A stretch of DNA of 23,990 nt from a virus (IMGVR_UViG_2681813314_000025:1-23990), one strand, 5' to 3'; shown: positions 7,569-23,990, counted from the first letter of the stretch. The notes: generated by a model from the letters alone, not told the origin. A program made the numbers and translations.

Positions 7569-7588
7569 TACTGTTTGTATAAACAGTG
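7569..7588 (+). promoter_or_regulatory. LexA (SOS) box TACTGTTTGTATAAACAGTG overlapping a candidate -10 hexamer TATACT (7567-7572)
   Basis: CTGT-N8-ACAG with a strong match to the consensus TACTGTATATATATACAGTA, about 50 nt upstream of the ORF starting at 7635. Confidence 0.6.
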
Positions 7589-7634
7589 GGTATATGTACA
7601 GTATTTGTGTATCCGTGTAATGATAGGAGGGAAG

Positions 7635-7823: not shown

Positions 7824-7835
7824 AGGGAAATCTGT

Positions 7836-8057: not shown

Positions 8058-8218
8058 TCCCGATAGGATCCTATCAGAGGGAACAAGGTTGAACAACGAG
8101 TGAAGCGAGGCGTTAGGTATGGCGGTCATGATCTTCAATGGCCGCCAGCTTTGTACTGTTTGCTCAACCAGCGGGTGCAACATACTTTTCTAACTCGAAT
8201 ATAAGATAAGATTTTTTA

Positions 8219-8247
8219 TTTACAACACTTGGCTTGTTCCTTAGTAT
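8219..8247 (+). promoter_or_regulatory. Candidate sigma70 promoter for the ATPase-HNH operon (TTTACA-17 bp-TAGTAT)
   Basis: Hexamers with 17-bp spacing in an AT-rich region about 45 nt upstream of the ATPase start. Confidence 0.35.
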
Positions 8248-8292
8248 CTAGCTAATCCTGAATGTGGGTTAGTGGAAATTACAAGGAAATAT

Positions 8293-9474
8293 ATGAAACT
8301 GACTGAGCTAACTATAAACGGTATCGGGGGGATAAAGTCCCTGTACGTAAAATTTAGGCCTGACATGAATATTATATGTGGGCCTAACGGAGTTGGAAAA
8401 TCCACACTCTTGCTTGCTGCCTCCTTTCCTTTTCTTCATGGATACACTAATAGAATAAAACGCAATGTCACTTCTGAAACAGGAAGTGTTAGTCTAATAA
8501 TAGAAGATAATTCTGTTAACTTTAATTCAGTATTAGATGTTAACGTTCATTTGCCTACAGAAACAATTCACAACTTTAATAATAACGGATTTGATAAGAG
8601 GAAACTAATAAAATTTGAAATATTACGTAACTTTGATTATAAACATCTTGAGGCGTTGAATGCAGATAAATCACTATCCGATGATGCTGTTTCGCAACAG
8701 ATTAATTTAGGTGTCAATTTACATGATATCAAGGATTGGTTTGCTAAGAGGGATTTGTTTGAAAAAGTAGATAATGGTTACGGTCCTAATACGATAAAAA
8801 ATATACATCTTGCAAGGGAGTGTATATCAATTTTAAACCCTCAGTTTTCTTACAATCGCGTCGATCCTAAATCTTACGATATTTTTGTAAATACCCCGAC
8901 CGGGGTAATATGGTATGAATATCTGTCCTCGGGATTCAAATCATGTATGAGTCTCCTTCTCGGTATTATTAAAGAGATCGAGCTTCGTTATCCGGAGAAA
9001 GATATTTACGCCCAAGAATTTGATGGAGTGATTCTTATCGATGAAATTGAGCTTCATTTGCATCCTGAGTGGCAGGCAAGAATCACTGAAGCCCTTACGA
9101 CAACATTTCCATCAGCACAATTTATTGTCACAACTCACAGCCCACATGTAGTACAGAATGCAAAACCACATCAGATCATTGCGTTAGTACCAGATAATGA
9201 TGGCACAGTGAGAGTAAAAGAACTTCCTGAAAATGGCTTGGGTTATTCTGCCTGGACAGTTGAAGAGGTTTTGTTAGATGTAATGGGGATGGAAAGCACT
9301 CTCAGTAGAAAACTACAAGAACTACTTGATAATTTCGAACGTTTTGTTGATGAAGAAAATTTCGACAAGGCGAAAGAAATTTATGATTATTTGGATATGG
9401 CATTGCATCAAAACAGTATTCTTCGTAAATCTCTTAAAATAAGCCTGATGTCAATTCGAGAGAGAGAAGAGTAA
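8293..9474 (+). CDS. ABC/OLD-type (AAA_21-like) ATPase with no fused nuclease domain; PtuA-like
   Basis: Walker A GPNGVGKST near the N-terminus, an ABC-signature-like LSSGFKS, Walker B/D-loop ILIDEIELHLHP, and an H-loop (TTHSP). There is a long insertion between Walker A and B, as in OLD/Gabija/PtuA-class ATPases. ATG at 8293 with AAGGA upstream (the track's GTG at 8272 is less likely). AT-rich. Confidence 0.8.
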   Translation: MKLTELTINGIGGIKSLYVKFRPDMNIICGPNGVGKSTLLLAASFPFLHGYTNRIKRNVTSETGSVSLIIEDNSVNFNSVLDVNVHLPTETIHNFNNNGFDKRKLIKFEILRNFDYKHLEALNADKSLSDDAVSQQINLGVNLHDIKDWFAKRDLFEKVDNGYGPNTIKNIHLARECISILNPQFSYNRVDPKSYDIFVNTPTGVIWYEYLSSGFKSCMSLLLGIIKEIELRYPEKDIYAQEFDGVILIDEIELHLHPEWQARITEALTTTFPSAQFIVTTHSPHVVQNAKPHQIIALVPDNDGTVRVKELPENGLGYSAWTVEEVLLDVMGMESTLSRKLQELLDNFERFVDEENFDKAKEIYDYLDMALHQNSILRKSLKISLMSIREREE

Positions 9475-9475
9475 A

Positions 9476-10222
9476 ATGATTAAGCTTGAACGGAACTTTA
9501 TTCCTGATTTTTTTACTCGTGTTGATCTTCTATCTTTAACTCAGGAGTTTAAAGATAATGGAACATCTGTTTGGCATCATCCGGAAGTAAAATCGGCATG
9601 TCTAAAATTAAGTAATGGCAAATGTGCATTTTGTGAGGTCAAGCTTGAAGAGGCTAGCACCTATAATGAAATTGAGCATTTTAAGGATAAAAAAAATTTC
9701 CCTGATGATGTTATTAGATGGGAAAATCTCCTTCCTTCATGCCGTCACTGTAATGGTTCAAAACAACGCCATAATGTTGTACTCAATCCTATAATAAATC
9801 CATGCAACGATTTACCGTCAGAACACCTTTATATGATAGGGTATCGTATTAAAGGTAAAACTGATTTAGGTAAAACAACAGTGGATGTTTTAAACTTTAA
9901 TCACAGGGAGCACAAGTTTATACCGCGTTGTAAAGCAGGGGAACTTATAGATAGCAGTATTGATGACGCAATAGAAAAACTTAATTGGTTTAATGAGAAT
10001 CCAAGTACTAGACGTAAAAACATTCTTATGAATCTAGTCGAGGCAATATTAGGTGAGTGTCAGAAAACATCTCCCTTTTCTGCAGTATCAGCAACAATGC
10101 TTCATCGTTCAGTCGAATATTCTTATCTGAAAGAAACCATGCAGATGCAAGGATTATGGTCAGATTATATGCAGGAACTTCATGATGAATCTTTGAGCCT
10201 GACGTTACCGTCAATTCGCTAG
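9476..10222 (+). CDS. HNH endonuclease (PtuB-like)
   Basis: Classic zinc-coordinated HNH finger: CAFCE..(12)..EIEHF ... WENLLPSCRHCNGSK. The start is 1 nt after the ATPase stop, so the two are translationally coupled. Confidence 0.8.
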   Translation: MIKLERNFIPDFFTRVDLLSLTQEFKDNGTSVWHHPEVKSACLKLSNGKCAFCEVKLEEASTYNEIEHFKDKKNFPDDVIRWENLLPSCRHCNGSKQRHNVVLNPIINPCNDLPSEHLYMIGYRIKGKTDLGKTTVDVLNFNHREHKFIPRCKAGELIDSSIDDAIEKLNWFNENPSTRRKNILMNLVEAILGECQKTSPFSAVSATMLHRSVEYSYLKETMQMQGLWSDYMQELHDESLSLTLPSIR

Positions 10223-10248
10223 TTAATACAGTTTTGCCCATAAAAGCT

Positions 10249-10285
10249 AAACGTTCAGATATTCTTGGCTGAACGTTTGATTTTA
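10249..10285 (+). terminator. Rho-independent terminator (10-bp perfect stem AAACGTTCAG/CTGAACGTTT, 10-nt loop, T-rich tail)
   Basis: Perfect inverted repeat 27 nt downstream of the HNH stop, followed by GATTTTAT. Confidence 0.6.
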
Positions 10286-10567
10286 TGAAGACGATAAGCA
10301 GATTGGGCCCGAGTGAGTATCTCGGGAAAATAAACCATTTACATACTATGTTTAACGTTCAAAGCACACCTCAAGCTTTCTTAGTTCTTCTGCTTCGATA
10401 TATAAACGGTCATTTGGTTACGAACATTCACTTCTCCCCTAAGTGCATGGCTATGCTGCATGAGATCGCATGACCGTTTGAGGAGCGTTGTAACGCAGGC
10501 GTGCCAGTTGTGACGGACTTTTTCGTATGTTATGCACCTGCATGAAAACCATTGCACAAAGCGGGCA

Positions 10568-10586
10568 GGCGTGGCGGGGATACGAG
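10568..10586. other. Candidate cos site (cohesive-end region) of the P2/186-type phage
   Basis: GGCGTGGCGGGGA matches the first 13 nt of the 186 cohesive end as I recall it (GGCGTGGCGGGGAAAGCAT; P2 is GGCGAGGCGGGGAAAGCAC). It lies in a non-coding stretch between the right-end cargo and the portal side, where cos is expected. Confidence 0.45.
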
Positions 10587-10696
10587 CGCGCGCTCATGGT
10601 TGAATTAATGAAATTATGGTGTTAAATAGGCTAGCTTTTTAAGTCGTGAATATTCAATTTTTCAACTCATTTTTTTCATAGGGAGGAGTAATTGAC

Positions 10697-11395
10697 ATGG
10701 TTATGTTAGTGGATGACTGTCCACGATGTGGATCACAAAAAATAGCGTTTGATGTTAATGGGCTGAATTGCACTAGGGTTTACAATGCATTGGGCGGGGG
10801 TAAAACATACGAGTACGAGGTCTATTGTGTTTGCCGAGAGTGTCATAAAACGACAATGTTTCTTTGCAGACCTTTAACGAAAAATAAAACTTTAGATGGC
10901 TATAATTGGGAAAGTGGAATATTCGGCTTAAAGGAAGTTGCAGAGGTTGTTAGGCCTATATCACCGGCAGACTTAGCAGTAGAGGAGCCACCAGAGTTCT
11001 TACCTGAGCATATCAATAGTGCATATGAGGAAGGGGCGAAATGTTTGGCTATAGGTTGTTATAATGCAGCAGCAACCATGTTTAGGCTTTGCCTTGATTA
11101 TGCCACAAAAGGACTTCTTCCTGATGGGGAGCAAGGGCCTGCGCAAAAAATAAGGAGAAGCCTAGGGTTAAGAATGGAGTGGTTATTTGATAATCATCTA
11201 CTGCCTGAAGCTTTAAGGGAACTAGCTGAATGCGTTAAAGATGACGGAAATGATGGAGCGCATGAAGGTATTTTGGATAAAGCTGCTGCTGAGGATCTTG
11301 AAGATTTTACCTATCTTTTTTTAGAACGGCTTTACACTGAACCTCAACGCCTTATCGAAGCCAAGACAAGGCGTGAACAAAGAAGAAACAAATAA
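10697..11395 (+). CDS. Zinc-ribbon protein with a DUF4145-like C-terminal helical domain (232 aa); cargo gene of unknown function
   Basis: N-terminal CPRCGS ... CVCRECH cysteine cluster. The C-terminal region has the R...L / GNDGAHE pattern I associate with DUF4145. Strong RBS AGGGAGGAG. It lies between candidate cos and the portal gene, converging on the portal stop with only 8 bp between stops. Confidence 0.65.
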   Translation: MVMLVDDCPRCGSQKIAFDVNGLNCTRVYNALGGGKTYEYEVYCVCRECHKTTMFLCRPLTKNKTLDGYNWESGIFGLKEVAEVVRPISPADLAVEEPPEFLPEHINSAYEEGAKCLAIGCYNAAATMFRLCLDYATKGLLPDGEQGPAQKIRRSLGLRMEWLFDNHLLPEALRELAECVKDDGNDGAHEGILDKAAAEDLEDFTYLFLERLYTEPQRLIEAKTRREQRRNK

Positions 11396-11403
11396 GTTCG
11401 GAA

Positions 11404-12441
11404 TTATTCTTCTGAAAGAATATAGGGCGTAAATTTAATCACTTCTTCGCCCAGCCAGTCGTTCAGCTCTTGTAGCCTTTTTTGCAAGGGCGTTAATTCA
11501 TTACGTACAAATACGCGACTGGCCTTCTCCACATCCCCAAACCCCCCGACATTATTAGGCATTATCCCCATCATTTGTGGCGGCACACGATGCGCCGCCA
11601 TCATGTCGTCCCGGCTCACGTTCTTGATATTCAGGAACTCATCCTTCGCCGCCACTTCTGACAACGGGATAATCTGAAGCCCGTCCTTTTTACCGTTAGG
11701 CGAGTACATAAACAGGTTACGGAAGTTACCAGGACCTTTGGCGCTTTTCATCGCATTGCGGAGGTTGTTCACATCCTCCTGGTTCTGCGCTGCATCGGTC
11801 ATGTACATGATGAAGCCTGCATGACTGCCGTTAATGTAATACTTGCGGCGGAACAGCGTGGCGGACTCGTTGAGCAGAGCTGACGGAATGGCAGAAAGAT
11901 AACCAGGCAGGCCGTAGATCTCCTGGTTGATGTCCGGTTCCATCAGATGAAAAATGTTGCCTTTCGTGAACTGATACGGCTGTGTAGTCATGCCGTATTG
12001 CACAAACCAGTAGGTATCAAGGTCTAACCCGCGTCGGGTGTATTTTGCCAGTGCAGGCTCAAGGGCGATAACTTCACCGAAGCGGTTCGTGCGTTTCTCC
12101 AGGTAGGCGTTACCAAAAACCAGATAGTCCTGTACAAAACGCGAAAAAGCCTGCTGGCTGAGCAGCGGGTGAGGGATGTAGGTGCTGGTCAGAATGTTGC
12201 ACTTCACTGCAATCGGTGAGCTGTGATGCACGGCGGCGCGGAAGGTTCGCGCCAGTCCGTCGAAACTCACAGGCGGCTCGTACCAACGATCCATCTGTAC
12301 GCATTCCACATAGTCCAGCAGTTCGCGGCGGTCCAGAACAGGAACGGGATCACCGAAGCTGAATGCTTCGGCTGAAGTCTGGCTTTTATGCTGGATCTGT
12401 TTCGTCGACGCAGCGCGGTTCTTCTTACTCTTTCCCATCAA
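11404..12441 (-). CDS. Phage portal protein (P2 gpQ family)
   Basis: 345 aa (P2 Q is ~344 aa), immediately downstream of and 4-nt-overlapped by the terminase gene on the same strand, adjacent to cos. Confidence 0.9.
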   Translation of the reverse strand: MMGKSKKNRAASTKQIQHKSQTSAEAFSFGDPVPVLDRRELLDYVECVQMDRWYEPPVSFDGLARTFRAAVHHSSPIAVKCNILTSTYIPHPLLSQQAFSRFVQDYLVFGNAYLEKRTNRFGEVIALEPALAKYTRRGLDLDTYWFVQYGMTTQPYQFTKGNIFHLMEPDINQEIYGLPGYLSAIPSALLNESATLFRRKYYINGSHAGFIMYMTDAAQNQEDVNNLRNAMKSAKGPGNFRNLFMYSPNGKKDGLQIIPLSEVAAKDEFLNIKNVSRDDMMAAHRVPPQMMGIMPNNVGGFGDVEKASRVFVRNELTPLQKRLQELNDWLGEEVIKFTPYILSEE

Positions 12442-14204
12442 AAAATCTCCACAATATTGCTGGTATTGGCGGACTCGCCCTGCAGCGGTTCGTTAAACAG
12501 TGCGTGCATTGTTGCCCAGGCCAGATCGGCATGGCTGGCTTCTTCGCTGCGGCTGGCTTCATAGGTCGGGCGGTTGCCACTGGCAGTGGTAGCGCGACGG
12601 ATTGCCATAAATGACTGCGCAATGTCGGTGTGCCCGGCGTCAAACTCCAGACGGCGGTGGCTGATAATGTCGTAGGCCTTGAGTACCAGGGCGTTTTTAA
12701 CGTTGGGGTTATAGACAAACTCCCTGACGGCAGGAAAAAACGCTTTCACGTTCTCGTAAACCCCGTGACCGACGCCGGTCGAGTCGATACCGATATAGGT
12801 CACGTTATACTGTTCGGTCAGTTTTTTGATGGCGTCAGCCTGGGCGCGGAAGTCCATCCCGCGCCACTGGTGACGCTCAAGAATGCGGAACTTACCACCC
12901 GGCACGGCTGGCGGAGCCACCACCACGCATCCGGCACTGTCGCCGTTCTGCGTACCTTTTGCCGGGTCATAACCGATCCACACTTCGCGCCAGCCAAACG
13001 GGCGCAGGGCCAGTGCATGAAAGTCGGTCCAGACTTCCCAGCTGTCCACCATGCACGCCTGCAGTTCGCTGAGCGGGAACACGGACGCGAGATCGTCCAC
13101 GAACTCGCACATCAGCAGGTTCTGGTATTCGTCCGGGCTGTACTCCATGCGCAGCTGGTCGAGGTCGAACAGGTTACAGCCGCCGCGCACCGCATCTTCC
13201 ACGGTGACTATCTGGCGGTATTGCCCGTCTGCGCACAGTAGGCCGGGGGCCAGATTGCTGTGGGACAGGTCGATGTCCACCTTGTCAGCTTTGTTGCGTC
13301 CACGGTTGAACAGCGCACCGGACCAGAACGGATAAGCACTGTGGGTCAGGCTGGATGGCGTGGAAAAATAGGTTTGTCGCCATTTCTTGTGAATAGCCAT
13401 ACCGGAAGCCACTTTGCGCAACTCCTGGAATTTCGGTATCCAGAAATATTCATCCAGATACAGGTTGCCGTGGTAACTCTGCGCCGTGCGGGCATTGGTG
13501 CCGAGGAAGTAAAGCGTGGCCCCGTTAGGAAGCACCATCGGATCGCCTTTCAGCTCCACCTCGACTTCTTTGGCGAAGTCGATGATGTACTGCTTAAAGA
13601 CGTGAGCCTGTGCCTTACTGGCAGAAAGGAAAATCTGGTTACGTCCGGTAAGCAGGGCGTCAATCAGGGCTTCACGGGCAAAGTAAAAGGTCGCGCCGAT
13701 CTGGCGTGACTTCAGCAGGTTGCGGATGCGGTTGGTTTTTCCGGCTTCCCACCAGTGGCGCTGGTAGTTGAACATGGAGGAATGGAAGATTTCTTCCAGT
13801 TTCTCTATCTGTTCATCGGTGAAAACATTCTTTTCCGGCTGACGGCGCGGGCCTTTGTTGCGGTTGGCGACGTTAGGGTTTAAGTCGGCTTCGTTGCCGC
13901 CATTGTTAAACTTGCCGATCCGCGCGTGGCGCTCCGACTGGCGCGCCAGCAGGTCAATTTCTTTGAAATCTTTCCCTTCTTTGTGCTCCTTCATAATGAG
14001 CTGGCAGTAACGTGCGGCGGTGGTGAGCTGCATCTGATCCAGCGGCCCATAGTCACCCCACTTGTCGCGTTTCTTCCAGCTGTGAACGGTTGCAACTTTC
14101 TCGCCCAGCATTTCAGCAATGCGGGCTACGCGGTATCCCTGAAAGTACAGCAGCATGGCCTGCCGACGGGGATCGAGATCTGCGGGTGTCAGTGTGGTGT
14201 TCAT
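12438..14204 (-). CDS. Terminase large (ATPase) subunit (P2 gpP family)
   Basis: 588 aa (P2 P is ~590 aa), divergent from the scaffold/capsid operon, in the conserved P2 position. Confidence 0.9.
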   Translation of the reverse strand: MNTTLTPADLDPRRQAMLLYFQGYRVARIAEMLGEKVATVHSWKKRDKWGDYGPLDQMQLTTAARYCQLIMKEHKEGKDFKEIDLLARQSERHARIGKFNNGGNEADLNPNVANRNKGPRRQPEKNVFTDEQIEKLEEIFHSSMFNYQRHWWEAGKTNRIRNLLKSRQIGATFYFAREALIDALLTGRNQIFLSASKAQAHVFKQYIIDFAKEVEVELKGDPMVLPNGATLYFLGTNARTAQSYHGNLYLDEYFWIPKFQELRKVASGMAIHKKWRQTYFSTPSSLTHSAYPFWSGALFNRGRNKADKVDIDLSHSNLAPGLLCADGQYRQIVTVEDAVRGGCNLFDLDQLRMEYSPDEYQNLLMCEFVDDLASVFPLSELQACMVDSWEVWTDFHALALRPFGWREVWIGYDPAKGTQNGDSAGCVVVAPPAVPGGKFRILERHQWRGMDFRAQADAIKKLTEQYNVTYIGIDSTGVGHGVYENVKAFFPAVREFVYNPNVKNALVLKAYDIISHRRLEFDAGHTDIAQSFMAIRRATTASGNRPTYEASRSEEASHADLAWATMHALFNEPLQGESANTSNIVEIF

Positions 14205-14250
14205 GGCACAAACCTACAGCCTTGAATGAAGGCTTTCCCCGCCTGCGGTT

Positions 14251-14268
14251 TGTGTGGTTGTCGGTACA
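14251..14268. promoter_or_regulatory. Candidate Ogr/B-type late-activator site (TGT-N12-ACA) in the divergent terminase/scaffold promoter region
   Basis: TGTGTGGTTGTCGGTACA, centred about 55 nt upstream of a plausible transcription start for the scaffold gene (ATG 14347). Confidence 0.4.
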
Positions 14269-14346
14269 AATACCGCGCATTGTTTCACTGCCCCCATCAC
14301 CGCAACCATAAGGCTCCAGTAAGTTATTTCTAACGGAGCACGGCTC

Positions 14347-15180
14347 ATGACAGTGAAAGCAAAGCGTTTTCGCATCGGGGTGGAAGGTGCCACCACCGAC
14401 GGACGCGAAATCCAGCGTGAATGGCTGGAACAGATGGCAGCCAGCTACAACCCGGCGGTGTATACCGCGCTGATTAACCTTGAGCACATCAAGTCTTATC
14501 TCCCGGACAGCACCTTTAACCGTTACGGCAAGGTGACGGCGCTGTTTGCTGAAGAAATCACGGAAGGCCCGCTGGCAGGCAAGATGGCGCTGTATGCCGA
14601 CGTTGAGCCAACGGAGTCCCTGGTGGAATTGGTGAAAAAAGGCCAGAAATTATTCACCTCTATGGAAGTCAGCCCGAAGTTCGCTGATACGGGCAAAGCC
14701 TACCTGGTCGGCCTGGCTGCCACTGATGACCCTGCCAGTTTGGGTACGGAAATGCTGACATTCAGCGCCAGTGCAGCCCATAACCCGCTGGCAAACCGCA
14801 AGCAGAATCCCGCCAATCTCTTTACCGCCGCAGAGGAAACGGTGATCGAACTGGAAGAAATCCAGGAGGACAAACCGTCCCTGTTTGCCCGTGTCACGGC
14901 GCTGTTTACCAAAAAAGAGCAGTCCGACGATGCCCGGTTCTCTGATGTGCATAAGGCCGTGGAGCTGGTCGCCACTGAGCAGCAAAACCTGAGCGCACGC
15001 ACCGAAAAATCCCTGTCTGAGCAGGAAGAACGTCTGTCTGAGCTGGAGACTGCCCTGCAGGCACAGCAGACCGCCTTTAACGAACTGGTGGACAAGCTGA
15101 GTCATGAAGACAGCCGCCAGGACTACCGCCAGCGTGCAACAGGCGGTAACGCCCCCGCTGACACTCTGACCAATTGCTGA
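14347..15180 (+). CDS. Capsid scaffolding protein (P2 gpO family)
   Basis: 277 aa with an acidic coiled-coil C-terminus; first gene of the rightward late operon, directly upstream of the major capsid gene. Confidence 0.85.
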   Translation: MTVKAKRFRIGVEGATTDGREIQREWLEQMAASYNPAVYTALINLEHIKSYLPDSTFNRYGKVTALFAEEITEGPLAGKMALYADVEPTESLVELVKKGQKLFTSMEVSPKFADTGKAYLVGLAATDDPASLGTEMLTFSASAAHNPLANRKQNPANLFTAAEETVIELEEIQEDKPSLFARVTALFTKKEQSDDARFSDVHKAVELVATEQQNLSARTEKSLSEQEERLSELETALQAQQTAFNELVDKLSHEDSRQDYRQRATGGNAPADTLTNC

Positions 15181-15196
15181 TGGAGCACAAAACCCG

Positions 15197-16255
15197 ATGA
15201 AGAAGAATACCCGCTTTGCTTTTAACGCTTACCTGCAGCAGCTGGCGCGTCTGAACGGTGTGGCAGTTGAAGAACTGTCCAGCAAGTTCACCGTAGAGCC
15301 GTCCGTGCAGCAGACGCTGGAAGACCAGATCCAGCAGTCCGCCTCTTTCCTGACGCTGATTAACGTCACGCCAGTGACTGAGCAGTCTGGTCAGTTGCTG
15401 GGGCTGGGTGTTGGCAGCACCATTGCCGGAACCACTGATACCACCGCGAAAGAGCGAGAACCTGTCGATCCGACGCTGATGGTCGATGTGGAATACAAAT
15501 GCGAACAGACCAACTTTGACACGGTGCTGACCTACGCGAAGCTGGACCTGTGGGCGAAGTTTCAGGATTTCCAGGTGCGTATCCGTAACGCCATCGTGAA
15601 ACGTCAGGCACTGGACCGCATCATGATCGGCTTTAACGGCGTGAAGCGTGCGAAAACCTCCAACCGTAGCGAAAACCCGCTGCTGCAGGATGTGAACAAA
15701 GGCTGGCTGCAGAAAATCCGTGAGGATGCACCGGATCACGTCATGGGCAGCACCACCACGGGCGGTGAAACCACACCGGGCGCGGTGAAAGTCGGGAAAG
15801 GTGGCGAATATGCCAACCTGGACGCCGTAGTGATGGATGCCGTCAATGAGCTTATCGACGTGGTCTACCAGGACGATGACGATCTGGTGGTGATTTGCGG
15901 TCGTGAACTGCTGTCTGACAAGTATTTCCCGCTGGTCAACAAAGAGCAGGAAAACAGTGAAAAACTGGCTGCCGATATGATCATCAGTCAGAAACGCATG
16001 GGTGGCCTGCAGGCGGTGCGTGCGCCGTTCTTCCCGCCGAATGCGCTGCTGATCACCCGTCTGGATAACCTGTCCATCTACTGGCAGGAAGATACCCGCC
16101 GCCGTTCAGTTATCGACAACCCGAAACGTGACCGGATTGAAAATTTTGAATCCGTTAACGAAGCCTATGTGGTTGAGGACTATCGCTGCGCTGCACTGGT
16201 GGAAAACATCCAGATTGGTGACTTCAGCGCCGCCGCAGCAGAAACCGGAGCGTAA
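15197..16255 (+). CDS. Major capsid protein (P2 gpN family)
   Basis: 352 aa (P2 N is ~357 aa), in the conserved position between scaffold and small terminase. Confidence 0.9.
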   Translation: MKKNTRFAFNAYLQQLARLNGVAVEELSSKFTVEPSVQQTLEDQIQQSASFLTLINVTPVTEQSGQLLGLGVGSTIAGTTDTTAKEREPVDPTLMVDVEYKCEQTNFDTVLTYAKLDLWAKFQDFQVRIRNAIVKRQALDRIMIGFNGVKRAKTSNRSENPLLQDVNKGWLQKIREDAPDHVMGSTTTGGETTPGAVKVGKGGEYANLDAVVMDAVNELIDVVYQDDDDLVVICGRELLSDKYFPLVNKEQENSEKLAADMIISQKRMGGLQAVRAPFFPPNALLITRLDNLSIYWQEDTRRRSVIDNPKRDRIENFESVNEAYVVEDYRCAALVENIQIGDFSAAAAETGA

Positions 16256-16258
16256 TTC

Positions 16259-16909
16259 ATGAGCCTGAGTCCCGCACGGCAGCATCGCCTGCGCGTTCAG
16301 GCTGAACAGGCCGCTCGCGAGGGTGGCAGTGTTCGCCACGCGTCGGGCTATGACCTGATGCTGCTGCAACTGGCGGAAGACCGCCGCCGTCTCAAGGGCG
16401 TTCAGTCCACGGTCAAAAAAGCGGAAATCAAGGTGGAGCTGCTGCCGAAATATGCCGCCTGGGCGGAGGGCGTTCTGGCTGCCGGAGGCGCTCAACAGGA
16501 TGACGTGCTGATGTACGTGATGCTGTGGCGCATTGATGCCGGAGATTATGCAGGGGCGCTGGAGATCGGGCGTCATGCCCTGCGTCATGGCTGGGTGATG
16601 CCGCTGGGTAACCGCAACGTGCAGACCGTGCTGGCAGAGGAAATGGCAGACGCGGCGCAGAGCGCAATGCTTGCCGCCACCGGCTTTGATGCCGATCTGT
16701 TGCTGCAGACGCTGGAGCTGGCAGACGGTCTGGATATGCCGGACCAGTCACGGGCGCGTCTGCATAAAGCGATTGGCGCTGTCCTGAGTGAAAGCAACCC
16801 GGCTTCCGCCCTTAATCATCTCAACCATGCGTTACAGCTCGATCCTCGCTGTGGCGTGAAAAAAGACAAACAGCAGCTGGAGCGCAGACTGCGCAATGAC
16901 AGCCGCTGA
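16259..16909 (+). CDS. Terminase small/endonuclease subunit (P2 gpM family)
   Basis: 216 aa, directly after the capsid gene. Confidence 0.8.
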   Translation: MSLSPARQHRLRVQAEQAAREGGSVRHASGYDLMLLQLAEDRRRLKGVQSTVKKAEIKVELLPKYAAWAEGVLAAGGAQQDDVLMYVMLWRIDAGDYAGALEIGRHALRHGWVMPLGNRNVQTVLAEEMADAAQSAMLAATGFDADLLLQTLELADGLDMPDQSRARLHKAIGAVLSESNPASALNHLNHALQLDPRCGVKKDKQQLERRLRNDSR

Positions 16910-17004
16910 CAGAACGTGCCCCCGCGCACGGGCGGCACGGGGTGGCGAAAGGCACTGCCACATCAAAACCCCGTCCACCGCCCTCTATTTCAGGAGAAAG
17001 CAGC

Positions 17005-17469
17005 ATGAAGTTTGTTGCGCCAGAACAGGCACCGGAACAGGCGGAAATCATCAGGAATACGCCGTTCTGGCCTGATGTGGACCTGTCGGAGTTTCGCAGC
17101 GTGATGCGCACTGACGGCACGGTGACGCAGCCGCGTTTAAAGCAGGTTGCGCTGTCGGCAATTTCGGAGGTCAACGCAGAGCTGTATGAGTTTCGCAGAC
17201 GCCAGCAGATGCTGGGGTATGCCTCGCTGGCAGAAGTTCCGGCGGAACAGCTGGACGGCAAAAGTGAGCGCATTCAGCACTATTTCAACGCGGTTTACTG
17301 CTGGGCACGCGCCATGCTCAACGAACGATACCAGGACTATGACGCCACGGCGTCCGGTGTGAAGCGGGGCGAGGAACTGGCGGAAGCAAGCGGTGATTTG
17401 TGGCGTGACGCCCGCTGGGCCATCAGCCGGGTGCAGGATGCGCCGCACTGCACAGTGGAGCTTATCTGA
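17005..17469 (+). CDS. Head completion/stabilisation protein (P2 gpL family)
   Basis: ATG at 17005 with AGGAGAAAG upstream (the track start at 16942 lacks an RBS); 154 aa, in the position of gpL. Confidence 0.8.
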   Translation: MKFVAPEQAPEQAEIIRNTPFWPDVDLSEFRSVMRTDGTVTQPRLKQVALSAISEVNAELYEFRRRQQMLGYASLAEVPAEQLDGKSERIQHYFNAVYCWARAMLNERYQDYDATASGVKRGEELAEASGDLWRDARWAISRVQDAPHCTVELI

Positions 17470-17672
17470 TGAAAGTGCGTGCGCATCAGTATGACACGGT
17501 GGACGCGCTTTGCTGGCGTCATTACGGGCGCACGCAGGGGGTCACGGAGCAGGTACTGAAGGCAAATCCGGGGCTTGCCGAATACGGCCCCTTTTTACCT
17601 CACGGGCTGCAGGTGGAGCTGCCGGACATTCCGACCACCACCACCGTGCAGACCGTCCAGCTATGGGACTGA
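17469..17672 (+). CDS. Tail protein X (P2 gpX family)
   Basis: 67 aa, the same length as P2 gpX; its start overlaps the L stop. Confidence 0.8.
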   Translation: MKVRAHQYDTVDALCWRHYGRTQGVTEQVLKANPGLAEYGPFLPHGLQVELPDIPTTTTVQTVQLWD

Positions 17673-17675
17673 ATT

Positions 17676-17891
17676 ATGACGCTTGAGCGAATCAGCGCCT
17701 TTATCACGTATTGCATCGCCGTCGTGCTGGCCTGGCTGGGCGATTTGTCCATCAAGGATGCCTCAACGCTGGGCGGCCTGATGATTGGTGTACTGATGCT
17801 GGCTATCAACTGGTACTACAAACACAAATCCTACCAGCTTCTGCGCGACGGGCAGATCTCGCGGGAGGACTATGAATCCATCAATCGTTAA
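17676..17891 (+). CDS. Holin, probable pinholin (class II, two transmembrane segments)
   Basis: 71 aa with two hydrophobic segments and a charged C-terminus, immediately upstream of and overlapping a SAR-type endolysin. Confidence 0.7.
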   Translation: MTLERISAFITYCIAVVLAWLGDLSIKDASTLGGLMIGVLMLAINWYYKHKSYQLLRDGQISREDYESINR

Positions 17892-18384
17892 ACGCTGCCT
17901 TGTCGGGGCCGTGCTGGCTATTGCTGCCACGCTGCCGGGTTTTCAGCAGCTTCACACCTCCGTGGAGGGGCTGAAACTGATTGCTGATTACGAAGGCTGT
18001 CGTCTGCAGCCGTATCAGTGCAGCGCGGGTGTCTGGACCGACGGCATTGGTAATACATCGGGCGTCATTCCCGGCAAAACAATCACGGAACGACAGGCAG
18101 CAGAAGGGCTGATCTCCAACGTGCTGCGTGTGGAGCGGGTACTGGAAAGGTGTGTGAAGCAACTGCCACCACAGAAGGTGTATGACGCTACGGTGTCGTT
18201 TGCCTTCAACGTGGGGACGGGCAATGCCTGCAGCTCCACGCTGGTGAAATTGCTCAATCAGCGGCGCTGGGCGGATGCGTGCCGACAGTTGCCGCGCTGG
18301 GTTTATGTAAAAGGTGTGTTTAATCAGGGGCTGGATAACCGCCGTGCGCGGGAGATGGCCTGGTGTTTACAGGGAGCAAACTGA
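17872..18384 (+). CDS. SAR endolysin (GH24 lysozyme with an N-terminal signal-anchor-release segment)
   Basis: N-terminal hydrophobic SAR-like segment (CLVGAVLAIAATLPGF), then a lysozyme catalytic region (DYEGCRLQPYQCSAGVWTDGIGNT). Confidence 0.8.
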   Translation: MNPSIVKRCLVGAVLAIAATLPGFQQLHTSVEGLKLIADYEGCRLQPYQCSAGVWTDGIGNTSGVIPGKTITERQAAEGLISNVLRVERVLERCVKQLPPQKVYDATVSFAFNVGTGNACSSTLVKLLNQRRWADACRQLPRWVYVKGVFNQGLDNRRAREMAWCLQGAN

Positions 18385-18385
18385 A

Positions 18386-18763
18386 ATGAAAAAGAAATTA
18401 ATCAGCGGACTGTTTCTGATGTTATGGATGGCGCTGTTAATCGCAGCAATGGTGTATCCGCAGGGGATTTTTCCGGTACTGGCAGCGTCCGGCGTTTGGG
18501 TAGCCTGTTTGCTGACATGGGCGGTAATTCCGGTAGCACTGGCTGCGTTAATTAAGAATGGCCCGCTCTGGCAGGAGTTAAGGGCATCTTTACTGAAGAC
18601 AATTACCCGAAAAGAAAACGTATTTATCAGTTGGGTGATGCGATTGCTGATTGTTGTAAGTCTCGCCTGGACGGGGTGGGCTATTACCCTGGTCTTTTAT
18701 CTTCTGACCGTTATTGCCTTCTGGATCACCCGTAATCAGATGGCGAAACAGGTAGCAGCATGA
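18386..18763 (+). CDS. Lysis-accessory integral membrane protein (LysA-like)
   Basis: 125 aa, multi-pass hydrophobic; ATG at 18386 with AGGGAG upstream, between the endolysin and the spanins. Confidence 0.6.
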   Translation: MKKKLISGLFLMLWMALLIAAMVYPQGIFPVLAASGVWVACLLTWAVIPVALAALIKNGPLWQELRASLLKTITRKENVFISWVMRLLIVVSLAWTGWAITLVFYLLTVIAFWITRNQMAKQVAA

Positions 18764-19188
18764 ACCGGTTGCTGCTGGTTGTGCTGGCGTTATTACTGGC
18801 GGCGCTGGGCTGGCAGACGTGGCGGCTGGCTGATGCCAGCCAGACCATCAGCACGCAGGCAGACGAGCTGCAGAGCAAAAGCCAGGCACTGGCAAAGAGC
18901 AACAGCCAGCTTATCAGCCTGTCCATTCTGACTGAAACCAATAACCGGGAGCAGGAGCGGCTCTATGCCGAAGCAGAACAGACCAGCACGCTGCTGAGAC
19001 AACGACAACACCGGATCGAGGAACTGAAACGTGAGAACGAGGATTTACGCCGCTGGGCTGATACTCCTTTGCCTGCTGACATTATCCGGCTGCGGAAACG
19101 TCCGGCACTCACCGGAGGTATGGCTTACCGTCAGTGGTTGTCCGCGAGTGACGCCGTGTCGGCTGGATCAGGCAACGCCGCGCACTAA
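18760..19188 (+). CDS. i-spanin (Rz/LysB-like inner-membrane spanin)
   Basis: N-terminal transmembrane segment followed by a coiled-coil-rich periplasmic region; an o-spanin ORF overlaps its 3' end in another frame. Confidence 0.7.
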   Translation: MNRLLLVVLALLLAALGWQTWRLADASQTISTQADELQSKSQALAKSNSQLISLSILTETNNREQERLYAEAEQTSTLLRQRQHRIEELKRENEDLRRWADTPLPADIIRLRKRPALTGGMAYRQWLSASDAVSAGSGNAAH

Positions 19189-19321
19189 CGGTGATCTGAA
19201 CGCGTTGCTGGATGAAACGGAGGCCGCCTGGGCGGTCTGTGCAGACAAAGTGGACATGATTATTGCGTGTCAGGAGCGAAACAGTGAACAAACCACAATC
19301 CCTGCGCCACGCCCTCAATAA
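19031..19321 (+). CDS. o-spanin (Rz1/LysC-like outer-membrane lipoprotein)
   Basis: Signal peptide with lipobox LTLSGC; GTG start inside the i-spanin gene in a different frame; Pro/Cys-containing mature region. Confidence 0.6.
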   Translation: MRTRIYAAGLILLCLLTLSGCGNVRHSPEVWLTVSGCPRVTPCRLDQATPRTNGDLNALLDETEAAWAVCADKVDMIIACQERNSEQTTIPAPRPQ

Positions 19322-19715
19322 AGCGGTGCCTTATGTCCGCAATAACCCGGACAAACTGCATCTGTTTGTGGATAACGGTTCGCTGGTTGCCACGGGGGCC
19401 AGCTCCATGTCGTGGGAGTACCGTTACACACTGAACGCGGTGATTGAGGATTTCAGCGGCGACCAGAATCTGCTGATGGCCCCGGTTTTGCTGTGGCTGA
19501 GGGATAACCAGCCCGATGCCATCAATAACCCGGCGTTACGGGAAAAGCTATTCACCTTTGAGGTGGATATTCTGCGCAACGATGTCTGTGATATCAGCCT
19601 GAACCTGCAACTGACGGAACGTGTGCTGGTCAGCACTGACGGCAGTGTGTCGAGCGTTGAAGCTATAGCGGAACCTGATGCACCTGAAGAAATGTGGACG
19701 GTGAAACGTGGCTGA
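19263..19715 (+). CDS. Tail completion protein R (P2 gpR family)
   Basis: 150 aa, at the P2 R position between the lysis genes and S. The exact start is uncertain (ATG 19263 or GTG 19283). Confidence 0.75.
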   Translation: MRVRSETVNKPQSLRHALNKAVPYVRNNPDKLHLFVDNGSLVATGASSMSWEYRYTLNAVIEDFSGDQNLLMAPVLLWLRDNQPDAINNPALREKLFTFEVDILRNDVCDISLNLQLTERVLVSTDGSVSSVEAIAEPDAPEEMWTVKRG

Positions 19716-20154
19716 ACTGCAGAAGGTGGACGACTGGCTGAGTGCCTTGCTGGCGAATCTGGAACCAGCCTCGAGAAGCCGCATGATGCGCCAGCTGGCG
19801 CAGGAACTTCGCCGGACACAGCAGCAGAATATCAGGATGCAGCGCAACCCTGACGGCAGCAGCTATGAACCGCGACGGGTAACAGCACGCAGTAAAAAAG
19901 GCCGTATCAAACGTCAGATGTTTGCAAAGCTGCGCACCACAAAATACCTGAAAACTGCCGCCAGCACCGACTCTGCCAGCGTGCAGTTTGAAGGCAAGGT
20001 GCAGCGCATTGCCCGCGTTCACCATTACGGCCTGCGAGATCGCGTCAGTCGTAAGGGACCGGAGGTGCGTTACGCAGAGCGTCGCCTTCTGGGTGTAAAT
20101 GATGATGTTGAGGCAATGACCCGCGACATGATTCTGCAATGGCTGGCGGGGTGA
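19708..20154 (+). CDS. Tail completion / virion morphogenesis protein S (P2 gpS family)
   Basis: 148 aa; GTG start overlapping the R stop; at the P2 S position. Confidence 0.8.
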   Translation: MAELQKVDDWLSALLANLEPASRSRMMRQLAQELRRTQQQNIRMQRNPDGSSYEPRRVTARSKKGRIKRQMFAKLRTTKYLKTAASTDSASVQFEGKVQRIARVHHYGLRDRVSRKGPEVRYAERRLLGVNDDVEAMTRDMILQWLAG

Positions 20155-20157
20155 TCT

Positions 20158-20177
20158 TTGTATCAGCACTGATACAA
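20158..20177. promoter_or_regulatory. Candidate Ogr/B-type late-activator site (TGT-N12-ACA) upstream of the baseplate operon
   Basis: TTGTATCAG-CA-CTGATACAA is a 9-bp inverted repeat, centred about 55 nt upstream of the V start (20223), in the 68-bp S-V intergenic gap. Confidence 0.5.
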
Positions 20178-20222
20178 GTTGCAGCACTGCCGCCTTTCTT
20201 CCCCTGATGGCAACCTTTCCCT

Positions 20223-20801
20223 ATGAACGCACAATTAACCGAAATCATGCGCCTTATCACCAACCTGATCCGCACAGGGGTAGTCACCGAAGTGGACAGG
20301 GAAAACTGGCTTTGCCGGGTGAAAACGGGCGAGCTTGAAACCAACTGGATCAGCTGGCTGACGCTGCGTGCCGGGAATGCCCGTACATGGTGGCGACCAT
20401 CGGAAGGTGAGCAGGTGGTGCTGCTGAGTCTGGGCGGCAATCTGGAAACAGCCTTTGCGCTGCCCGCTGTCTATTCGAATCAGTTCGCACCACCGTCGAC
20501 GTCGGCGGACGCCTGCGTGACAGAACATCCTGACGGTGGCTGGTTTGAATACGAACCCGCCACCGGGCGCTGGTATGTCAGGGGCATCAAATCAATGGTC
20601 ATTGAGGCTGCTGACAACATCACCATGAAAACCAGTGAGTTTGTACTGGAGGCTGACCGCACGCGCATTAACAGCGAAGTGGTGATCAATGGTGGCGTTA
20701 CCCAGGGCGGCGGAGCGATGAGTTCTAACGGGATCGTGGTTGATGCGCATCAGCATACTGGCGTCCTGAAAGGCGGCGATACAACCGGAGGCCCGGTATG
20801 A
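20223..20801 (+). CDS. Baseplate spike/assembly protein V (P2 gpV family)
   Basis: 192 aa, first gene after the late promoter site, followed by W-J-I in the conserved order. Confidence 0.85.
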   Translation: MNAQLTEIMRLITNLIRTGVVTEVDRENWLCRVKTGELETNWISWLTLRAGNARTWWRPSEGEQVVLLSLGGNLETAFALPAVYSNQFAPPSTSADACVTEHPDGGWFEYEPATGRWYVRGIKSMVIEAADNITMKTSEFVLEADRTRINSEVVINGGVTQGGGAMSSNGIVVDAHQHTGVLKGGDTTGGPV

Positions 20802-21157
20802 CGCTTTATAGCGGGATGAACAATACCAGCGGCAAAGTCATTACTGATATTGATCATCTGCGCCAGTCGGTGCGGGACATTCTGCTGACACCGCAGGGTA
20901 GCCGTATTGCCCGCCGGGAATATGGTTCCCTGCTGTCGGCACTGATAGATCAGCCACAAAATCCGGCATTACGCCTGCAGGTCATGTCGGCAGTGTATGT
21001 GGCGCTGAGTCGCTGGGAGCCACGGTTGACGCTGGATTCCATCACCATCAACAGCAATTTTGACGGTTCAATGGTGGTGGAGCTGACCGGGCGGCGGAAT
21101 AACGGTGTGCCTGTGTCCCTTTCCGTATCAACAGGAGCAGAGAATGGCAGTGATTGA
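20798..21157 (+). CDS. Baseplate assembly protein W (gpW/gp25 family)
   Basis: 119 aa; start overlaps the V stop; P2 W is ~115 aa. Confidence 0.85.
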   Translation: MTLYSGMNNTSGKVITDIDHLRQSVRDILLTPQGSRIARREYGSLLSALIDQPQNPALRLQVMSAVYVALSRWEPRLTLDSITINSNFDGSMVVELTGRRNNGVPVSLSVSTGAENGSD

Positions 21158-22052
21158 CCTTTCGCAGTTGCCTGCACCGCAGATTGTGGATGTGCCGGAC
21201 TTTGAGACGCTGCTTGCCGAACGCAAGGCAGAATTTGTGGCGCTTCATCCGAAAGATGAGCAGGAAGCAGTGATCCGCACGCTGGAACTGGAATCTGAAC
21301 CCGCCACTAAATTGTTGCAGGAGAATGCTTACCGTGAGTTGCTTCTGCGCCAGCGCATTAACGAAGCCGCGCAGGCGGTGATGGTGGCTTACGCGATGGG
21401 CGGCGATCTTGACCAGCTCGCTGCCAACTACAACGTGACACGCCTGACGGTGACGCCTGCTGATAATGATGCTGTGCCGCCCGTTGCAGCTGTGATGGAA
21501 AGCGATGAAGCGTTACGCCTGCGTGTGCCTGCAGCCTTTGAAGGGCTTTCTGTTGCGGGGCCAACTGCAGCTTATGAATTTCATGCCCGAAGCGCCGACG
21601 GTCGGGTGGCGGATGCCAGTGCAACCAGCCCGGCACCTGCAGAGGTGGTGCTGACTGTCCTTAGCCGCGAAGGCGATGGAACTGCAGAAAAAGACCTGCT
21701 GGACGTGGTGGAAAAAGCTCTGAACAGTGAGAACGTCCGCCCGGTGGCTGACCGTCTTACGGTTCGCAGCGCAGAAATCATCCCGTATCGCGTGGAAGCC
21801 ACCATTTTTCTCTATCCTGGACCGGAAGCAGAGCCGGTAATGGCAGCGGCAAAAGCCAGCCTGCAGAAGTACATCGCCAGTCAGACGCGTCTTGGTCGGG
21901 ATATTCGCCGTAGCGCCATCTTTGCCGCCCTGCATGTTGAGGGGGTGCAGCGTGTGGAGCTGGCTTCTCCTCTGGCGGATGTGGTCCTGAACAAAACACA
22001 GGCGGCATCATGTACGCAGTGGAGCGTAACCAACGGAGGAACGGATGAATAG
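21144..22052 (+). CDS. Baseplate assembly protein J (P2 gpJ family)
   Basis: ATG at 21144 with AGGAGCAG upstream gives 302 aa, the same length as P2 J. Confidence 0.85.
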   Translation: MAVIDLSQLPAPQIVDVPDFETLLAERKAEFVALHPKDEQEAVIRTLELESEPATKLLQENAYRELLLRQRINEAAQAVMVAYAMGGDLDQLAANYNVTRLTVTPADNDAVPPVAAVMESDEALRLRVPAAFEGLSVAGPTAAYEFHARSADGRVADASATSPAPAEVVLTVLSREGDGTAEKDLLDVVEKALNSENVRPVADRLTVRSAEIIPYRVEATIFLYPGPEAEPVMAAAKASLQKYIASQTRLGRDIRRSAIFAALHVEGVQRVELASPLADVVLNKTQAASCTQWSVTNGGTDE

Positions 22053-22650
22053 TCTGCTGCCACCGGGTTCAACACCACTGGAGCGCCGACTGGCGCAAAC
22101 CTGCAGCGGGATTTCTGATCTGCAGGTGCCGCTTCGTGACTTGTGGAATCCGGCAACCTGTCCGGTCAGTTTCCTGCCTTATCTCGCCTGGGCGTTCTCT
22201 GTGGATCGCTGGGACGAGGGCTGGACAGAAAGCGTCAAGCGCCAGGTGGTGAAGGATGCTTTTTATATTCATCAGCATAAAGGGACCACCAGTGCCGTGC
22301 GGCGGGTGGTGGAGCCGTTCGGATTCCTGATCCGCATTATTGAGTGGTGGCAGACCGGAGAAACACCGGGCACGTTTCGCCTGGATATCGGCGTGCAGGA
22401 CCAGGGCATCACTGAAGATACCTATCTGGAACTTGAGCGACTGATAAGCGATGCCAAACCATGTAGCCGCCACATGATCGGCATGTCCATCAATCTGCAG
22501 ACCAGCGGCCCGCATTGGGTGGGAGCCGCCAGCTATCTTGGCGAAGAAATCACGATCTATCCGTATATCAACGAAACGATTATTTCCGGTGGCACCGCGC
22601 ATGAAGGCGGGGCGGTCCATGTTATTGATACAATGAGAGTGAATCCATGA
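22045..22650 (+). CDS. Baseplate/tail protein I (P2 gpI family)
   Basis: 201 aa; overlaps the J stop and the H start. Confidence 0.8.
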   Translation: MNSLLPPGSTPLERRLAQTCSGISDLQVPLRDLWNPATCPVSFLPYLAWAFSVDRWDEGWTESVKRQVVKDAFYIHQHKGTTSAVRRVVEPFGFLIRIIEWWQTGETPGTFRLDIGVQDQGITEDTYLELERLISDAKPCSRHMIGMSINLQTSGPHWVGAASYLGEEITIYPYINETIISGGTAHEGGAVHVIDTMRVNP

Positions 22651-23990
22651 GCACAAAATTTTATACCCTGCTGACGGATATTGGCGCGGCGAAACTTGCC
22701 AGCGCCGCCGCGCTCGGTGTGCCGCTAAAAATTACCCATATGGCGGTGGGCGATGGCGGTGGAGTATTGCCAACGCCGGACGCAAAGCAGACGGCACTGG
22801 TAAATGAGAAACGCCGGGCTGCGCTGAATATGCTTTATATCGACCCGCAGAACAGCAGCCAGATTATTGCCGAACAGGTGATCCCTGAAAACGAGGGCGG
22901 TTGGTGGATACGTGAAGTGGGCTTGTTTGATGAGTCCGGGGCATTGATTGCCGTGGGCAACTGCCCGGAAAGCTATAAGCCGCAACTGGCTGAAGGTAGC
23001 GGGCGCACTCAGACCGTGCGCATGGTGCTGATTACCAGCAGCACGGACAATATCACCCTGAAAATCGACCCTGCTGTAGTGCTGGCAACCCGCAAGTATG
23101 TGGATGACAAGGCACTGGAGCTGAAGGTGTACGCGGATGATCAGATGGCAAAACATCTTGCCGCACCGGACCCGCATTCACAGTACGCGCCAAAAGCCAG
23201 CCCGACATTTACCGGAACCCCCAAAGCGCCAACGCCAGCGGCGGGGAATAATACCACGCAGGTTGCGACCACTGCGTTTGTACAGGCGGCACTGACGGCC
23301 CTTATTAATGGTGCGCCAGCCACGCTGGACACGCTGAAAGAAATAGCCGCAGCCATTAACAATGATCCGAATTTCAGTACCACCATTAACAATGCGCTGG
23401 CACTAAAAGCACCGTTGTCGAGTCCGGCACTCACCGGAACGCCAACAGCCCCCACGGCGGCGCAGTCGGTCAACAATACACAGATTGCCACTACGGCTTT
23501 TGTGAAATCGGCGATTGCAGGAATGGTGGGTTCTGCACCTGCTGCACTGGATACACTGAACGAACTGGCGGCGGCACTGGGGAATGATCCGAACTTTGCC
23601 ACGACAATGCTTAATGCGCTGGCAGGTAAACAACCGCTGGACAATACGCTTACCAATTTGAGTGGAAAGGATGTAGCTGGTCTTCTCACATACCTTGGTT
23701 TTGGAGAAGGTGCTAACTGGGTTATGTTACCTGGAGGAATGATAATTCAGCGTGTTTATCTTGGATTTCCTGTTGGCACCAATGCAAGACACATAACTTT
23801 CCCCCGGTCGTTTACAACAACGAACTATTCCATCTCAATTAACTGGAATGATATCGGTACTGTAACAACTGAAACACAATCACCAGCAAATGTGGCGGTT
23901 GTTCATCAAACAAAATCATTAACAGGGGCCAGCATCTGGCAGGCAGGTCCCGGGGGATTTAATGTGGACATTATAGCGGTGGGGTATTGA
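22647..23990 (+). CDS. Tail fibre protein H (P2 gpH-like) with a compositionally distinct C-terminal region
   Basis: 447 aa. It contains two ~65-aa internal repeat units (..TGTP.APT.A...NNTQ.ATTAFV..A......G.....LDTL.E.AAA..NDPNF.TT..NALA.K.PL..), followed by an AT-rich C-terminal ~110 codons. The stop codon is the last 3 nt of the window. Confidence 0.8.
   Translation: MSTKFYTLLTDIGAAKLASAAALGVPLKITHMAVGDGGGVLPTPDAKQTALVNEKRRAALNMLYIDPQNSSQIIAEQVIPENEGGWWIREVGLFDESGALIAVGNCPESYKPQLAEGSGRTQTVRMVLITSSTDNITLKIDPAVVLATRKYVDDKALELKVYADDQMAKHLAAPDPHSQYAPKASPTFTGTPKAPTPAAGNNTTQVATTAFVQAALTALINGAPATLDTLKEIAAAINNDPNFSTTINNALALKAPLSSPALTGTPTAPTAAQSVNNTQIATTAFVKSAIAGMVGSAPAALDTLNELAAALGNDPNFATTMLNALAGKQPLDNTLTNLSGKDVAGLLTYLGFGEGANWVMLPGGMIIQRVYLGFPVGTNARHITFPRSFTTTNYSISINWNDIGTVTTETQSPANVAVVHQTKSLTGASIWQAGPGGFNVDIIAVGY

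Follow-up and report, generated by a model that had tools for sequence, protein, structure and literature searches.

The window analysed here is a stretch of viral DNA of 23,990 nucleotides (IMGVR_UViG_2681813314_000025:1-23990) whose last triplet is the stop codon of a tail-fibre gene, H. Toward this stop codon the GC content of the gene falls abruptly. We asked what the drop marks, where it begins and what follows H in genomes that carry the same gene. A first-pass annotation had read the AT-rich end as a horizontally exchanged receptor-binding tip and had pointed out that invertible host-range segments begin at such junctions.

Layout and base composition of gene H

H follows homologues of V, W, J and I, as in P2 (gene order by proxy annotation and comparison with P2), and residues 1–150 of its product match Pfam Phage_tail_fib (E = 4e-65). 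By both its N-terminal domain and its late-operon position, the product is a P2-like (Peduoviridae) tail-fibre protein H. At 447 aa the ORF is shorter than P2 H, given in the first-pass annotation as about 669 aa and confirmed at 669 aa in NC_001895 (12734–14743). The constant part (Hc) is 95–99.8% identical in more than 500 E. coli prophages and is also common to Klebsiella and Escherichia P2-like phages. It contains a duplicated shaft unit that is visible at the protein level only, and Tandem Repeats Finder returned nothing on H.

Sliding-window and codon-position analysis confirmed the abrupt drop in GC at the end of H, and the GC counts of the constant part and the variable tip (Hv) differ significantly (Fisher test, p = 0.001; values in Table 1). 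Across the late genes (12000–23682), windows of 282 bp have a mean GC of 0.567 (sd 0.027, minimum 0.461), and none of the 11,402 backbone windows is as GC-poor as the tip. By codon position, GC1/GC2/GC3 is 0.60/0.49/0.59 upstream and 0.49/0.48/0.35 from 23640 on, and the fall in GC3 within H is from about 0.57–0.59 to 0.35–0.36. Since the drop is mostly synonymous, it is not explained by amino-acid composition and reflects a difference in DNA history. Across the whole window, 23% of 351-bp windows are equally AT-rich because there are other low-GC islands, in the early region and in a defence hotspot at 7500–11500, and the composition of the tip is exceptional relative to the structural-gene backbone only.

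The maximum-likelihood change point in composition is at 23583, with a 2-log-unit support interval of 23463–23690, and composition alone cannot locate the boundary more finely than this interval. It includes the start of the putative crossover site described below as well as 23640, the first codon after the second shaft repeat, near which the first-pass annotation had started the AT-rich part. That start is thus compatible with composition, but the functional boundary predicted from homology, 23683–23708, lies about 45–70 bp further downstream. The motif LSGKDVAGLL, from which the AT-rich part had been said to run, belongs to the constant part.

The tip boundary

Our megablast searches with H and with the whole window covered 50,697 phage records plus 5,426 complete E. 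coli genomes, and the backbone proved common: 510 E. coli records span at least 80% of the window. All backbone relatives listed, from E. coli and phage records alike, lose their match at 23708–23711, and past this point relatives at 95–99.8% identity carry unrelated tips. Approached from the other side, copies of the tip in other contexts begin to match at 23683 in many genomic copies. These homology breakpoints put the boundary at 23683–23710. The unrelated tips on near-identical backbones, together with an identical tip on a Mu-like/e14-like gene (see below), bear out the view of the tip as horizontally exchanged.

The interval contains a 26-bp sequence of the Pin/Gin crossover type, which lies in the reading frame of H and encodes (L)LTYLGFGE. 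Its two half-sites agree at 9 of 12 positions. The same sequence forms one arm of the top inverted repeat in three related loci (L001, L002 and L003), with the partner arm 1.77–1.81 kb downstream, beside a recombinase gene. For comparison we used the e14 repeats quoted in PMC12529663 together with K-12 and Mu sequences. Compared with Mu gix, the window site agrees at 18 of 26 positions. In the 7.2-kb Mu fibre locus, its best 26-mer match falls exactly on the two gix sites, the centres of which are the annotated boundaries of the G segment. The published inverted repeat of the e14 P segment, TTGGTTTGGGAGAAGG (16 nt; PMC12529663), matches the window once, at 23695–23710 and with 1 mismatch, compared with 0.01 matches expected by chance. 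By these sequence comparisons, the tip boundary is a Pin/Gin-type crossover site at 23683–23708, in agreement with the earlier suggestion that an invertible segment might begin at the junction.

Some matches start upstream, near 23613, and we considered this position as the true boundary. We rejected it: the step is a lineage-specific jump in identity within a more divergent H (L002, from about 75% to about 98%), which also lacks one of the shaft repeats.

Table 1. Positions of the features discussed in the text (window coordinates unless a contig is named).
Feature	Position	Strand	Description
Integrase ORF	1-1209	-	stop codon at window start
Tail-fibre gene H, current fusion state	22647..23990	+	447-aa ORF; constant N-terminal part and gp53-like variable tip
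Constant part of H (Hc)	22647..23682	+	GC 0.555
Two tandem shaft repeat units	23199-23417 and 23418-23639	+	~73 aa each; 62% identical to each other
Putative 26-bp Pin/Gin-type crossover site	23683..23708	+	in reading frame; half-sites and core TTCTCACATACC TT GGTTTTGGAGAA; inverted repeat reaches 23710
Central TT dinucleotide, probable strand-exchange point	23695..23696	+	from half-site partitioning
Variable tip (Hv)	23709..23990	+	GC 0.443; 282 bp; first gene piece inside the putative invertible segment
Tfa chaperone, L012	begins 2 bases after H stop	+	142 aa; Caudo_TAP
Second Tfa chaperone, L012	convergent	-	197 aa; Caudo_TAP
Silent ORF with Collar-type tip, L012	after 197-aa Tfa	-	
Right-hand site, L012	8783-8808	-	read on - strand, inverted; TTTTCTTAAACG TT GGTTTGGGAGAA
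Serine invertase, L012	8864-9430		188 aa; Resolvase and HTH_7; outside segment, followed by sheath gene
AAA ATPase and DUF4435 pair, L001	2520-4623		
AAA ATPase and DUF4435 pair, L008 and L009	about 11640-13770		

Continuation past the window end

One site lies inside the window, and the invertase and chaperones were seen on contigs identical to the window's end. An exact-protein look-up of the 447-aa H returned three contigs, L012, L013 and L014, in which the last 6,542–7,344 bases of the window recur with 100% identity. In L012, a 269-kb E. coli contig, this identity spans the last 7,344 bases and the sequence then runs on through the region in which the first-pass annotation had proposed to look for an assembly chaperone and an invertase. 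Both are found there. H is followed by a Tfa chaperone, a convergent second Tfa, a silent ORF with a Collar-type tip, an inverted copy of the site and, outside the segment, a serine invertase (Table 1). The core of the right-hand site reads AA on the + strand, that is, TT inverted, and two sites only were found in L012. Sequence identity of the invertase is 86% with e14 PinE and about 71% with Mu Gin, and the L001 homologue matches Pfam Resolvase with E = 7e-53.

Low GC extends over the whole L012 segment (0.459, versus 0.566 and 0.554 in the flanks), as it does over the e14 P segment (0.456 versus 0.541). The GC drop in H is therefore the left boundary of a GC-poor cassette in circulation among prophages.

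L013, a metagenome contig, keeps the gp53-tip half of the segment (7226–9719 examined), and there the second half differs and the invertase is a different one, of 184 aa. The continuation seen in L012 is therefore not unique among carriers of the exact H. At the position expected for the sheath gene, L013 has a GIY-YIG (LEM-3-like) gene, and this contig may represent a different element or be chimeric. L014 terminates 22 bp past the H stop codon. For the window itself, we considered a contig break as the reason for its ending at the stop of H and rejected it, as the window also starts on a stop codon, that of the integrase. With the integrase stop at positions 1–3 and the H stop at 23988–23990, the window was probably cut at gene boundaries.

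Both orientations of the segment

To compare orientations we used genomes with near-identical flanks. In L017, a complete E. coli chromosome, the flanks match those of L012 at 99.3% and 99.7% identity, and the segment between them is the L012 segment inverted, at 98.9% identity over 1,754 bp and with the half-sites swapped as predicted. A sister lineage gave the same picture: L001 and L009 have flanks that are 99.9% identical and differ by a 1,826-bp inversion bounded by 28-bp repeats.

A T/G polymorphism at 23701 marks the inner half-sites and allowed us to follow them in both pairs (L001/L009 and L012/L017). Of the inner half-sites, GGTTTTGGAGAA always accompanies the gp53-like tip and GGTTTGGGAGAA the alternative one, while the outer half-sites are fixed, TTCTCACATACC on the H side and TTTTC(A/T)TAAACG on the invertase side. 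This partitioning places the exchange between positions 13 and 18 of the site and fits cleavage at the central TT; enzymes of the Gin family cleave at the central dinucleotide (mechanism: PMC3575834). An alignment of six contexts likewise has the switch of partner inside the site. Taken together, these between-genome comparisons indicate inversion within one prophage lineage, with exchange inside the site.

Both orientations encode an in-frame H, with each tip followed by its own Caudo_TAP chaperone (142 aa or 197 aa). When we inverted L012 in silico at the central dinucleotide, the product was an intact H of 501 aa directly followed by the 197-aa chaperone, and the predicted alternative junction is present at full length in 30 genomes. 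In L017, which holds the segment flipped, the annotation splits H into two pseudogene fragments (3251–4756), which may stem from a real lesion or from a sequencing error.

In L008, which is near-clonal with L009, the segment (6200–8100) is garbled and frameshifted and in parts only 79–82% identical. This is suggestive of a consensus built from reads of mixed orientation. Invertible segments seem to break or corrupt assemblies, as in L014 and L008.

The gp53-like tip

When the C-terminus of H was searched in isolation, it matched Pfam Gp53-like_C (PF21882) with 27.9 bits, above the cut-off of 24.9, whereas the full protein scored 23.2 bits. An AF2 model of the tip (monomer, alignment of 11 sequences) reached a pLDDT of 80.3 and a pTM of 0.69. 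The top five PDB matches in Foldseek (6cxb, 6cl5, 6ct8, 6cl6 and 4mtm) had a probability of 1.0 and TM scores of 0.55–0.59. These are the foot of the R1/R2 pyocin fibre and gp53 of Acinetobacter phage AP22, with 20–21% sequence identity to the tip. A phmmer search of the tip against the PDB gave chance matches only (E at least 0.33), so the relationship shows at the level of the fold only. On this model the tip is a gp53/R-pyocin-type foot domain, with a predicted function in receptor binding, and its ligand would presumably be a surface saccharide such as LPS.

A word-indexed protein search with the tip returned near-identical E. coli fragments only. Exhaustive HMMER over 1.84 billion representative proteins gave 21 matches, of which the close relatives are all from E. 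coli and the distant ones are 29–52% identical; the AF2 model was built with these matches. Against the 50,697 phage records, neither blastn (distant mode) nor tblastn found a match to the tip. The first-pass annotation had suggested comparison with the fibre tips of Mu, P1, lambda Stf and T-even gp37/38, and tblastn against these records found no relative there.

In these searches the tip DNA was confined to prophages of E. coli: 112 of the 5,426 genomes carry it, at 140 places in all, none of them on a plasmid. Among about ten copies that we inspected, the tip is usually a short silent ORF beside an invertase. In some loci it forms a fusion with an H of the P2 type (L001, L002) or with a fibre gene of the Mu-like/e14-like type (L006). 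The allele is thus rare and absent from sequenced phage isolates, and it is of modest interest for the engineering of host range in phages and tailocins.

Cassette exchange among prophages

In L006 the tip is 100% identical over 280 bp and is fused to an unrelated tail-fibre gene of the Mu-like/e14-like type. The identity begins inside the site, and the DNA upstream is unrelated. This locus (5696–7781) is part of a Mu-like/e14-like prophage remnant, where the tip sits in a short fibre gene of 195 aa with rfb genes adjoining. The segment is cut short by an IS26, so that only part of tfaE remains and there is no invertase; the tip is therefore locked in the expressed state.

Replacement from site to site is also seen between close relatives. 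Outside the two sites, L012 shows 99.8% and 99.7% identity to L004, its nearest relative in backbone, whereas the DNA between the sites is unrelated except for 316 bp of conserved chaperone C-terminus. Between L012 and L001 the gp53-tip half of the segment is common and the other half differs, with the break at the convergent chaperone ends (L012 8027). The segment is drawn from a pool of cassettes common to unrelated prophages.

One could go further and propose that P2-like and Mu-like/e14-like prophages share this tip-chaperone pool through Pin-type invertases acting between molecules, and not through homologous recombination. Identity that starts inside the site in L006 and the site-to-site replacement between L012 and L004 make our data compatible with this proposal, which we regard as tentative and on balance rather unlikely. 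Site-specific exchange of fibre genes between elements was proposed decades ago for P1, p15B and Mu, so a pool of this kind, if true, would be the quantification of an old idea rather than a discovery.

Other variable regions of the element

The low-GC island at 7500–11500 (GC 0.33–0.43) lies between the replication endonuclease gene (5083–7476) and the portal gene (11404–12441, - strand) and has ORFs at 8272–9474, 9476–10222 and 10697–11395. PADLOC identified a Septu pair in it (PtuA, E = 1e-151; PtuB, E = 2e-95), along with a DUF4145 protein with a weak match to PD-T7-4. In place of the Septu island, the relative nearest in backbone encodes an AAA ATPase, an HNH protein and an AIPR protein, and the island looks like the known variable hotspot of P2-like phages. 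A further GC-poor stretch (0.37–0.42), at 1001–2500, takes in the repressor region and the 5′ portion of the integrase gene.

In sister prophages, the interval from the virion morphogenesis gene to the baseplate gene V holds an AAA ATPase and DUF4435 gene pair, encoded on the opposite strand (Table 1). We take this pair to resemble a defence pair of the PARIS type. At the same position the window has a 68-bp intergenic gap only (20155–20222).

Discussion

The locus described here appears to be a host-range switch of the Mu G / P1 C / e14 P type, closest in sequence to the Pin system of e14. Traits of the Gin/Cin/Pin/Hin (Din) family that are present here are a site of the right type, an inverted partner with the same core, an adjoining serine recombinase and both orientations of the segment. 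Given the high identity of the invertase gene to pinE, a Fis-bound enhancer in its 5′ part is plausible.

The likeness to e14 is detailed. We compared the stfP-tfaP / tfaE-stfE / pinE locus of this E. coli cryptic prophage and found the same order of constant part, site, gp53-like tip, Tfa, convergent Tfa, second tip, site and invertase. Its P segment is 1,797 bp long, compared with 1.75–1.83 kb here, and both are AT-rich. The inner half-site here is that of the published e14 repeat, with the one mismatch in the window copy (PMC12529663). There are also clear differences. e14 is a defective remnant, whereas the element here is an apparently complete P2-like prophage; the N-terminal part of StfP is about 95 aa long, whereas the constant part here, an H of the P2 type, is 354 aa long. 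The StfP tip of K-12 e14 belongs to the same Pfam family and is only 25% identical to the window tip, and the second tip of e14 and its chaperone differ from those found here.

Mu G/Gin and P1 C/Cin follow the same logic, with a fibre gene split by a 26-bp site, two opposed tip-chaperone cassettes and a serine invertase outside the segment. Their segments are 3 kb long, compared with about 1.75 kb here, the backbone differs, and the Mu tips are unrelated to the window tip (no tblastn match). Among P2-like phages, P2 itself has G and Z/fun where the segment sits here. The same backbone is found in Escherichia phage 500465-1 (Wadgaonvirus), in which the constant part of H is 99.7% identical, and in the Klebsiella phages Kp48xx and 4LV2017, in which it is 94.6–95.4% identical and about 80% of the window is matched at 95%. 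These phages have the same layout of H, invertible segment, annotated DNA invertase and sheath gene, but the tips differ; that of the gp53-like type in 500465-1, which is silent, has 27% identity to the window tip. For the tip domain, the R1/R2 pyocin foot and AP22 gp53 appear to share the fold at a distance in sequence, as judged from the structural model.

Inversion itself is documented in related systems. It was shown for the e14 P segment (PMC12529663, PMC4272514). In the P2-like prophages of EPEC E2348/69 it was demonstrated experimentally, with coexisting orientations found by sequencing and PCR (PMC4272514), and for Salmonella Fels-2 (Fin) it was inferred, with an inversion between strains described (PMC7953296). 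The EPEC and Fels-2 elements are also P2-like, with an invertase and alternative C-termini of H; we liken them by published description. Three repeats and four variants are present at one EPEC locus, whereas two sites only were found in L012.

Several other explanations have to be weighed. The junction could in principle be an assembly chimera, since invertible segments upset assemblies, as the end of L014 and the garbled segment of L008 illustrate. The identical junction is, however, found in three independent assemblies, and it is present in four complete genomes at 95.4–99.6% identity across it; this explanation is refuted and has next to no probability left. The same is true of the idea that the GC drop is meaningless and results from amino-acid or structural constraint or from chance. 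The stretch is indeed short (282 bp), and other parts of the window are as AT-rich. Yet the drop is concentrated at GC3 (0.59 to 0.35) with GC2 unchanged, it has no equal in the 11,402 backbone windows, and it coincides with homology breakpoints in hundreds of genomes; the fall in GC3 and the breakpoints refute this idea. A fixed mosaic, in which the tip was acquired once by homologous or illegitimate recombination and the switch is inactive with its site a relic, is very unlikely, although not quite so remote as these two. Homologous reshuffling does occur at such loci, as shown by the half-segment exchange at the conserved Tfa C-termini (L012 compared with L001) and by the identity jump near 23613 in L002, and in L006 the switch was destroyed by IS26. 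However, the lineage of the window keeps the site, its partner, an intact invertase and intact ORFs in both states, and the same lineage is seen in both orientations.

Alternatively, the gp53-like protein might mainly serve the lysogen by blocking the adsorption of other phages, as is reported for StfE2 of e14, and not determine the host range of the virion. In e14, the protein that arises by inversion of the P segment is reported to have a gp53-like domain and to prevent T2 from adsorbing (PMC12529663), and with sites and an invertase near-identical to those of e14 this precedent could extend to the present locus. Against it, the tip here is part of a full-length H whose late operon is P2-like, apparently complete and equipped with the chaperone, and its identity to the gp53-like tip of e14 StfP is just 25%. 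The late operon of P2, including H, is normally silent in lysogens, which also argues against a role in the lysogen. We consider such a main role improbable, slightly more so than the fixed mosaic. Protection of the lysogen and a function in host range are not mutually exclusive.

In all probability, the AT-rich 3′ end of H is the receptor-binding variable part of a fibre gene split by a Gin/Cin/Pin-type inversion switch. The proposed switch would be nearly the e14 P system, set between H and the sheath gene of a P2-like prophage. Late transcription would proceed from Hc through the site into a segment of about 1.75 kb, which in the orientation of the window would supply the gp53-like tip of 94 codons and then its Caudo_TAP chaperone. 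The serine invertase just outside the segment would recombine the site with its inverted partner, with exchange at the central TT. Inversion would then bring the Collar-domain tip and its chaperone in frame behind the same Hc, to give an H of 501 aa in place of 447 aa. The invertase is presumably active in its host and dependent on Fis and the enhancer, and the two orientations would be expected to differ in host range, as the two tips have unrelated folds (gp53-like versus Collar).

The mechanism is already known from other elements, and the finding is real but ordinary. For the biology of this prophage family, the H of 447 aa is not a truncation relative to P2 H, and its ORF is one of two programmed states. 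A population of lysogens would release virions with two adsorption specificities, and a prediction of host range from a single assembly sees half of the repertoire only.
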